Source: Escherichia coli
GTDB lineage: Bacteria; Pseudomonadota; Gammaproteobacteria; Enterobacterales; Enterobacteriaceae
Assembly: GCF_003334255.1 (NCBI RefSeq)
Contig: NZ_QOWU01000164.1
Length of the DNA stretch: 1,323 nucleotides
Direction: 5' to 3' (one strand)
Positions 1-1,006 of the stretch are shown here, piece by piece (positions within the stretch are counted from its first letter, which is position 1; the number at the start of each line of letters is the position of its first letter). The notes under the pieces are model-generated. The model was given only the letters and a program-made list of their open reading frames with translations. It ran no database searches and was not told where the DNA came from. The translations under genes were made by a program, and so were the position numbers.

Positions 1-326
1 CGGTGAACACTTACTGGCGACGCCGTGGCAGCACATATTTTGTATCAAAAGCCGGGGAGCGTTATCGCCGGGCAGTGTCGCTTATTGTTCGCCAGCAGCG
101 ACTGAAATTAAGCCTGTCCGGACGGCTGGCAATAAAAATTATTGCAGAGCCACCGGATAAGCGTCGTCGTGACCTGGACAATATTCTGAAAGCACCGCTG
201 GATGCGCTGACGCACGCGGGGTTGTTAATGGACGATGAGCAGTTTGATGAAATCAATATTGTGCGTGGTCTGCCTGTTCCTGGCGGGCGGCTGGGGATAA
301 AAATCACAGAACTGGAGTGCGCATGA
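1..326 (+). CDS. rusA: RusA-family Holliday junction resolvase (crossover junction endodeoxyribonuclease), 5'-truncated by the window edge; reading frame begins at nt 3, stop TGA at 324-326
   Basis: The translation aligns by eye to E. coli RusA: DKRRRDLDNILKAPLDALTHAGLLMDDEQF and PGGRLGIKITEL match the RusA [30 protein letters not shown] and KGGRLELTITEM blocks. The catalytic Asp triad and Lys equivalents are present (D at nt 171-173, D at 177-179, K at 189-191, D at 234-236). About 12 N-terminal codons appear to lie upstream of the window. The position directly upstream of a Q-like gene matches phage 82 and other lambdoid nin regions. Confidence 0.85.
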   Translation, partial: VNTYWRRRGSTYFVSKAGERYRRAVSLIVRQQRLKLSLSGRLAIKIIAEPPDKRRRDLDNILKAPLDALTHAGLLMDDEQFDEINIVRGLPVPGGRLGIKITELECA

Positions 327-1006
327 ATAACCAGTATTTACAGTTTGTTCGTGAGCAACTCATGATTGCCACTGCGGATCTCAGTGGGGCGACAAAAGGC
401 CAGCTGGAAGCCTGGCAGGAGAATGCCCTGTTCGATACAGGGCGTTACAGACGCAAAAAAATTCGTTATCGCGATGAGGTAACCGGAAAAATGATCACGC
501 GGGATAATCCACCGATCCCGGGTAAACAATCACTGGCGAAAGGCTCATCAATTGCGCTGGTCAGACCGGTTGAGTTTGCAACATCATCGTGGCGGCGTGC
601 CGTTCTGGAACTGGAAGAACATCAGAAGGCGTGGTTACTGTGGTGCTACAGTGGAAATGTTTGCTGGGAAGATCAGGTCACTATAACACAATGGGTATGG
701 GGTGAGTTTAAAGCTCAGGCTGGTACCAGAAAAATTGCAGGGAAAACGCTGGATCGTCTGAAGAAACTGATTTGGCTGGCGGCACAGGATGTGAAGAGTG
801 AGCTGGCAGGGCGTGAGACCTATGAACATCAGGAGTTAGCGCTGTTCATAGGAGTTGCTAAATCTACATGGACAAAAACACACAGGCCTCACTGGTTGGC
901 TATGCGGGGTAGTGCAGAGATGCTGGACAGGGATGCTCTTATTTCAGTAATGCGGGTACGTTCACGGAAAAAGTCGCTTAATTTAGAACCATATCTTGCA
1001 AAATAG
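323..1006 (+). CDS. Q: Late-gene transcription antiterminator Q (Q82-type family inferred), 227 aa from ATG 323; alternative in-frame GTG at 317 gives 229 aa; stop TAG 1004-1006
   Basis: A long ORF sits immediately after rusA, as in phage 82 and related lambdoid prophages. ATG 323 overlaps the rusA stop (ATGA) and is preceded by GGAG at 314-317 with a 5-nt spacer. It is followed at once by a strong promoter and an intrinsic terminator, the PR'/tR' layout that Q proteins act on. The protein is basic and Trp-rich with only two Cys, so it is not lambda-Q or Q21-like; this points by exclusion to the third (Q82) family. The family call comes from synteny and recollection, not from a search. Confidence 0.68.
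   Translation: MNNQYLQFVREQLMIATADLSGATKGQLEAWQENALFDTGRYRRKKIRYRDEVTGKMITRDNPPIPGKQSLAKGSSIALVRPVEFATSSWRRAVLELEEHQKAWLLWCYSGNVCWEDQVTITQWVWGEFKAQAGTRKIAGKTLDRLKKLIWLAAQDVKSELAGRETYEHQELALFIGVAKSTWTKTHRPHWLAMRGSAEMLDRDALISVMRVRSRKKSLNLEPYLAK

Follow-up and report, generated by a model that had tools for sequence, protein, structure and literature searches.

The 1,323-nt stretch of Escherichia coli DNA analyzed here (hereafter the window; contig NZ_QOWU01000164.1 of assembly GCF_003334255.1) contains the 3' part of a rusA gene, a complete open reading frame (ORF) encoding a phage antitermination protein Q, a promoter followed by a pause element and an intrinsic terminator, and the 5' part of a further ORF (Table 1). 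The Q ORF starts with ATG and is intact over 227 codons plus the stop codon, its start overlapping the TGA stop of rusA (ATGA, 323–326). The encoded protein is 100% identical to WP_001064904.1, which RefSeq names "bacteriophage antitermination protein Q" and which belongs to a lambdoid prophage of E. coli JE86-ST05. This strain and three others carry a chromosomal prophage matching the window at 99.7% identity, and the RefSeq annotation of the 99.7%-identical genome gives exactly the same coordinates for Q. The same Q allele was also present, at 98–99% identity, in viral contigs of IMG/VR. With 2765 homologues at E ≤ 1e-5 and the Pfam and PHROG matches described below, the ORF is, judged by its sequence, far beyond what chance would produce. 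It is a known feature, correctly named in public annotation, and nothing new in kind.

Table 1. Features of the window and the evidence on which each was placed. L002 designates the JE86-ST05 prophage locus.
Feature	Position	Strand	Basis
rusA, 3' part (Holliday-junction resolvase), 5' end beyond the window	1–326	+	NCBIfam RusA (E 6.6e-20); PHROG 34 (E 1.3e-47); RefSeq
Q gene, 227-amino acid (aa) late-gene transcription antiterminator, Q82 family (PF06323)	323–1006	+	Pfam; alignment with phage 82 Q; RefSeq identity
Predicted helix-turn-helix (HTH), Q codons 169–196 (QELALFIGV-AKS-TWTKTHRPHWLAM)	827–910	+	AlphaFold2 helices; W183/W191; weak TetR HTH alignment; helix-spacer tracking
Late promoter PR': -35 TTGCAA (996–1001), 17-nt spacer, -10 TATATT (1019–1024)	996–1024	+	Promoter scan, 9/12 matches
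Putative Q-binding element (QBE) in the -35/-10 spacer, AATAGAACTGAAGATCA, "GAACTGAA" class	1002–1018	+	Published QBE location; spacer-helix tracking
Inferred transcription start (+1), A1031	1031	+	7 nt past the -10 hexamer; numbering fits published 82 pR'
Sigma70-dependent pause element, extended -10-like TG-a-TATTTT (TGATATTTT) plus GCC; predicted pause at about +25 (T1055)	1036–1047	+	Match to 82 pR'; conservation
Intrinsic terminator tR', CCCGCC-ACT-GGCGGG plus T6	1079–1099	+	Terminator scan; RNA fold; equivalent terminator in most of ten loci
First gene past the terminator, 5' part (65-aa protein in the full locus)	1223–1323	+	PHROG 331 (unknown function; E 1.3e-15); RefSeq "hypothetical protein" (13223–13420 of L002)

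Three families of Q proteins are distinguished, Q21 (PF06530), lambda Q (PF03589) and Q82 (PF06323) (Yin et al. 2022, PMC9388147). The first-pass annotation of this DNA had placed the ORF in the Q82-type family by exclusion, and had proposed a profile search against the Pfam Q families as a check. In that search the window Q matched PF06323 (Phage_antiter_Q) with an E-value of 1.1e-88 and 297 bits, residues 4–220 aligning to positions 1–217 of the 220-position model, and up to E ≤ 10 no other family was matched, PF03589 and PF06530 included. PHROG 304, "anti-termination protein Q-like", was matched with an E-value of 2.4e-102, and PF06323 was carried by 120 of 120 homologues among the matches listed. 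A tblastn search of phage records recovered phage 82 Q (X92588) together with a homologue from phage 434, and pairwise alignment of the window Q with phage 82 Q was gap-free over 227/227 residues, with 69% identity (E 1e-114). Membership in the Q82 family, as read from these alignments, now stands on direct evidence, and the fallback offered earlier, that the protein might be an unrelated late regulator, finds no support. No NCBIfam model matched Q, and a PADLOC scan returned no defence-system matches. The further claim of the first-pass annotation, that the protein resembles neither lambda Q nor Q21, holds at the level of sequence: there was no match to either Pfam family, no sequence similarity to lambda Q (PF03589; PDB 4MO1) or Q21 (PF06530; PDB 6JNX/6P18) was found, and hhalign of the family profile with lambda Q gave a probability of 0.7%. 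Searches of PDB sequences with the single sequence and with the family profile gave no match below E = 0.6 and no Q21 chains; the profile search did give a weak alignment to a TetR HTH. For the predicted fold, by contrast, the claim seems not to hold, as described below.

The window Q contains four histidines and only two cysteines, C108 and C114, both within the segment WCYSGNVCW; the ORF and the residue count bear out the earlier description of a 227-aa product with these two cysteines. The Cys4 zinc finger of the lambda Q family is an insertion in lambda Q, absent from Pseudomonas aeruginosa AlpA and from a model of 82Q (Wen et al. 2022, PMC9371919), and it is likewise absent from the window Q, neither of whose two cysteines is conserved. 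In an alignment of 63 family members, reaching down to 17% identity, there was no conserved Cys or His column. The C108 column had the highest Cys frequency, 59% of the 63 sequences. Phage 82 Q is devoid of cysteine and carries S and R at the positions of C108 and C114. With no conserved Cys or His column, no cysteine in 82Q and a zinc finger that only lambda Q has as an insertion, a Q protein free of a Cys4 site is the norm in the Q82 family and not an oddity.

Directly downstream of Q lies a promoter, PR', whose -35 hexamer overlaps the last Q codons. In phage 82 the QBE is located between the -35 and -10 hexamers, and a repeat at 82PR' extending from -31 to +30 includes the QBE (PMC4914094); the corresponding spacer of the window is a putative QBE by its position and sequence. 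If A1031 is taken as +1, the TG of the extended -10-like element falls at +6/+7, TATTTT at +9 to +14, GCC at +15 to +17 and a T at +25. These initial transcribed features agree with those published for 82 pR', where the pause element is extended -10-like, the GCC discriminator lies at +15–17, and polymerase pauses at +25/26 with a U at the paused 3' end (PMC5001585). The comparison with 82 pR' uses the elements as described there in words, together with IMG/VR loci that share the HTH segment of 82Q without a difference; a full-text literature search for TGATATTTTGCC returned unrelated papers only, and the strings are absent from PMC5001585. The terminator tR', which the first-pass annotation had already pointed out, is a real sequence feature, with a 6-bp, all-GC stem at 1079–1093 followed by T6.

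In all, 90 loci were examined, made up of 80 IMG/VR contigs, 9 phage records and the window itself, and the pattern TTGnnn, 16–18 nt, nAnnnT, 9–14 nt, TGnTAT was taken to represent the cassette. The promoter and pause element were found by this pattern in 84 of the 90 loci, and three of the six misses were contigs that end too early. Ten loci that were aligned, from phages of Escherichia, Salmonella, Klebsiella, Enterobacter and Cronobacter, have the same layout, with a nearly invariant TGATAT. Every cis element is present and conserved, and the Q82-type qut cassette (promoter, putative QBE, pause element and terminator) is complete at the level of sequence.

A model of the window Q was built with AlphaFold2 from the 63-sequence alignment and reached a mean pLDDT (predicted local distance difference test score) of 85.7. 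It contains an N-terminal helix (residues 3–17), a low-confidence stretch at about 20–80 and a well-defined helical core (82–220) that ends in an HTH formed by helices 169–176 and 180–220, with pLDDT above 95. W183 and W191 are nearly invariant across the family. A comparison with solved Q structures had also been suggested in the first-pass annotation; the top PDB matches of the predicted model include AlpA, lambda Q and Q21, so that a Q-type resemblance is predicted for the fold where none is seen in the sequence. AlpA (PDB 7XYA/7XYB) belongs to a different Pfam family, has no detectable sequence similarity to the window Q and, in the comparison with the predicted model, gave a root-mean-square deviation of 5.5 Å. 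Since an earlier study had noted that a model of 82Q is similar in fold to AlpA and lambda Q (PMC9371919), this result is a confirmation and not a discovery; the PDB copy searched contains no structure from the Q82 family. AlpA binds the DNA element through its C-terminal HTH (PMC9371919), and the HTH of the window Q may be the DNA-recognition module that reads the QBE.

Phage 82 Q (GenBank X92588, CAA63332), a protein of 229 aa, is collinear with the window Q, shares its Pfam family and occupies the same position after rus. A small gene, orf45, lies between rus and Q in phage 82, whereas none separates rusA from Q in the window, so that the synteny with phage 82 is close, although the two arrangements differ in this respect. 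Downstream of Q, phage 82 pR'/qut and the window share the extended -10-like pause element, GCC at +15–17 and U at +25, and in the IMG/VR loci with a phage 82-identical HTH segment the initial transcribed sequence, CCGTGTAAATCTGATATTTTGC, is identical to that of the window. The two proteins differ most at the C-terminus: over residues 176–227, which include the recognition helix, identity is only 33%, the helix being AKSTWTKTHRPHW in the window Q and TSKNWSETFTERW in 82Q. The -35/-10 spacer differs as well, AATAGAACTGAAGATCA in the window as opposed to AACTGGATTAAAA... in 82/434-type loci.

The closest relatives overall in the phage database are the Q proteins of PPompW and vB_EcoS-689R5, prophages or phages of E. 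coli, with 74% protein identity. They have in common with the window the rusA-Q overlap and the same cassette, and differ from it after the terminator, where they carry tRNA genes and the window a small ORF. Residues 1–165 of the window Q are 84–86% identical to the PPompW/689R5 type, but residues 166–227 are only 45% identical to it and 61–63% identical to the type found in Salmonella ZC-S1_prp and Klebsiella ST11-VIM1phi8.1. In PPompW/689R5 the helix is of the "KNWS" class and the spacer of the "AGATTGAAA" class; ZC-S1_prp and ST11-VIM1phi8.1 have the AKSTWT helix class and the GAACTGAA spacer core, as does the window. By contrast, the first 165 residues of the latter two are only 62–70% identical to the window Q, and they come from other hosts, with other upstream genes. 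Taken at the level of its sequence, the window Q is a chimera whose helix class differs from that of phage 82. The mosaic stretch corresponds to positions 818–1018, that is, Q codons 166–227 plus the promoter spacer.

Across the 84 loci that match the cassette pattern, each recognition-helix class of the HTH pairs with one -35/-10 spacer class, without exception. Helix AKSTWT (SKPTWT at one locus) is found with spacer AAyyGAACTGAA in the window, Salmonella ZC-S1_prp and Klebsiella phages; helix T(S/T/P)KNWS with AAnn(G/A)GAT(T/A)(G/A)AAA in phage 434, the loci with a phage 82-identical HTH, PPompW and ENT1; and helix KPDNW with AAGTCAATTAAAT in Klebsiella phage 2 LV-2017 and its relatives. By core, the three spacer classes are GAACTGAA, GGATTrAAA and TCAATTAAA. 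Cronobacter phage phiES15, a single locus, has its own helix, TAKNWW, and its own spacer, AAGTAGATTTTTAAGGG. The mosaic pattern would fit a protein in which one part, the body, engages RNA polymerase and another, attached to it, reads DNA, this module and its site having been exchanged together. It is tentatively proposed, at a confidence somewhat short of even, that the window Q is a natural chimera of a PPompW/phage 82-like body (residues 1–165), an AKSTWT module and the matching "GAACTGAA" spacer, and that, if the link represents true specificity, there are at least three orthogonal Q/QBE classes sharing one pause element. If true, these loci would provide a natural set of exchangeable parts with which DNA reading by 82-type Q proteins could be mapped, and the catalogued natural helix/spacer pairs could guide DNA-recognition experiments on the Q82 family.

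Combined, these observations make it very probable that the product of the ORF is a late-gene antiterminator of the Q82 family, belonging to a lambdoid prophage of E. coli and acting on a promoter-pause-terminator cassette that begins in the last codons of its own gene. Transcription start, pausing, binding to DNA and antitermination are all carried over from phage 82 Q, its close homologue. On that analogy, RNA polymerase would start constitutively at PR', at about base 1031. Sigma70 would then re-bind the extended -10-like TGATATTTT at +6 to +14, and the complex would pause near +25. Q would bind the -35/-10 spacer through its C-terminal HTH and load onto the paused complex, and the modified polymerase would read through the terminator into the late region, reaching the small ORF, a methyltransferase gene, tRNA genes, lysis genes and the terminase. 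When Q is absent, transcription would end at tR', yielding a leader RNA of about 69 nt. Antitermination that requires the QBE and a sigma70-dependent pause, and that NusA stimulates, would be expected of a Q82-family member. A closed nozzle is only a possible mechanism for this family, since 82Q can load on complexes with long RNA (PMC9388147).

Several points weigh against this interpretation. The function of this allele is taken from homology to phage 82 Q. Its C-terminal 62 residues are about 40% identical to the phage 82-type Q, so activity on the phage 82 qut site cannot be assumed. The match in fold comes from a predicted model with low confidence at residues 20–80. Helix and spacer lie within about 200 bp of each other, so that their pairing may in part be due to physical linkage, and linkage alone could give the pattern. 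Finally, several early-region genes of the prophage are pseudogenes, and the element, in spite of its intact Q and cassette, may be defective as a phage.

This last point leads to the most serious alternative, in which Q is an intact but stranded remnant in a decaying prophage, a true Q homologue that no longer drives a productive late operon. At the 99.7%-identical JE86-ST05 locus, frameshifted or truncated genes are indeed annotated in the early region, namely pseudogenes of DUF4752, ead/Ea22-like, DUF551 and YdfR. However, the Q ORF is intact, as are the promoter, pause element and terminator, and all of them fit the conserved family pattern; the downstream holin, lysozyme, terminase and portal genes are annotated as intact, and the occurrence of the same allele in the IMG/VR contigs also argues against decay. 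A stranded remnant is therefore considered unlikely.

Less probable still is that the protein acts mainly on host transcription, rather than as a strict switch of the late operon. A precedent exists in AntQ of Gifsy-1, which promotes read-through in core-genome transcripts and arrests growth (PMC4825925), and the leader of related Q82-type cassettes falls into the Rfam family isrJ, first described in the Salmonella Gifsy-1 region. Against this, a complete cognate cassette lies directly downstream of Q, as an operon-specific Q needs, membership of AntQ in PF06323 is uncertain, and no qut-like sites in the host were found, although no search was made for them. A conventional HTH transcription activator or DNA-binding regulator, for which the C-terminal HTH of the predicted model and the label "transcriptional activator/anti-terminator" given to the homologue by one annotator of phage 434 might speak, is highly improbable, since biochemical work has shown that phage 82 Q, its close homologue, exerts antitermination on elongation complexes that have paused (PMC4914094), and a near-consensus promoter followed by a pause element and a terminator is the layout of antitermination.

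The late-operon antiterminator reading agrees with the position of the gene. At the 99.7%-identical locus, Q closes the nin/rus region, and the late genes for lysis and morphogenesis follow it directly. The order past the terminator in that genome is the 65-aa ORF, a DNA methyltransferase gene, tRNA-Ile, tRNA-Arg, tRNA-Arg, a terB-like gene, a nanS-p-like gene, holin, lysozyme, terminase and portal; DUF3927 and the SASA-family esterase (nanS-p-like) sit between the terB-like gene and the holin gene (JE86-ST05, L002 13571–14921 onward). By its position, the 65-aa ORF would be the first gene under control of Q. The layout of the late region resembles that of Stx-converting phages, and the JE86-ST05 prophage has no annotated toxin genes where stx is usually located. 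The Q gene thus marks the late-gene switch of a lambdoid prophage with a Stx-phage-like layout (Q, terminator, methyltransferase, tRNAs, lysis genes), and in phages of the Stx-converting type the Q allele and the PR' cassette govern expression of the late region. Beyond correct annotation, the gene has little significance. The 65-aa ORF has about 90% DNA identity to the sequences that occupy its place in phiP27, phiSTEC1575-Stx2k and other lambdoid phages, and in some of those phage records it is labelled "TrmB family transcriptional regulator".

Some further features of the region around the terminator were observed. Between tR' and the next ORF there is a second, weaker terminator-like hairpin at 1138–1154 on the plus strand, with the sequence GGTCGTGAATAGCGACC and, after it, TTTCATCTTG; it could be a back-up terminator or a chance match. 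The stem of tR' (1079–1093) scores as terminator-like on the minus strand too; its tail there, GTTTGCTTAC, is a poor T-run, and tR' is probably not bidirectional. A promoter-like site on the minus strand (1067–1040) had a chance-level score. The annotation of phage 434 places a CII-dependent antisense promoter, paQ, at the 3' end of Q; such a promoter was rejected for the window, within which the pattern TTGYN6TTGY had no match.

The leader itself is longer than that of phage 434 by a segment of about 17–20 nt, located after the pause site and before the terminator (window positions 1042–1070), which is common to E. coli PPompW/689R5 and can form a second hairpin (UUGCC...GGCAA). The fold of the whole leader has an energy of -21.3 kcal/mol, with a z-score of -2.4 relative to shuffled sequences. 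The window leader was not accepted as a member of the isrJ or isrK families, as it reached 20 bits with isrJ and 16 bits with isrK, in each case less than the gathering score. Higher isrJ scores were obtained downstream of Q82-type Q genes of Enterobacter phage ENT1 (72.7 bits) and Klebsiella phage ST11-VIM1phi8.1 (57.2 bits), the gathering score being 37. The leader from PR' to the terminator (window 1028–1098; locus L009, 1406–1479; locus L007, 1406–1484) corresponds to the small RNA family isrJ of Rfam (RF01393). For IsrK, an earlier study described an origin at a promoter regulated by antitermination (PMC7547250). The isrJ consensus begins, at its 5' end, with UGUAAAUCUGAUAUC, which is the initial transcribed region with the sigma-dependent pause element.
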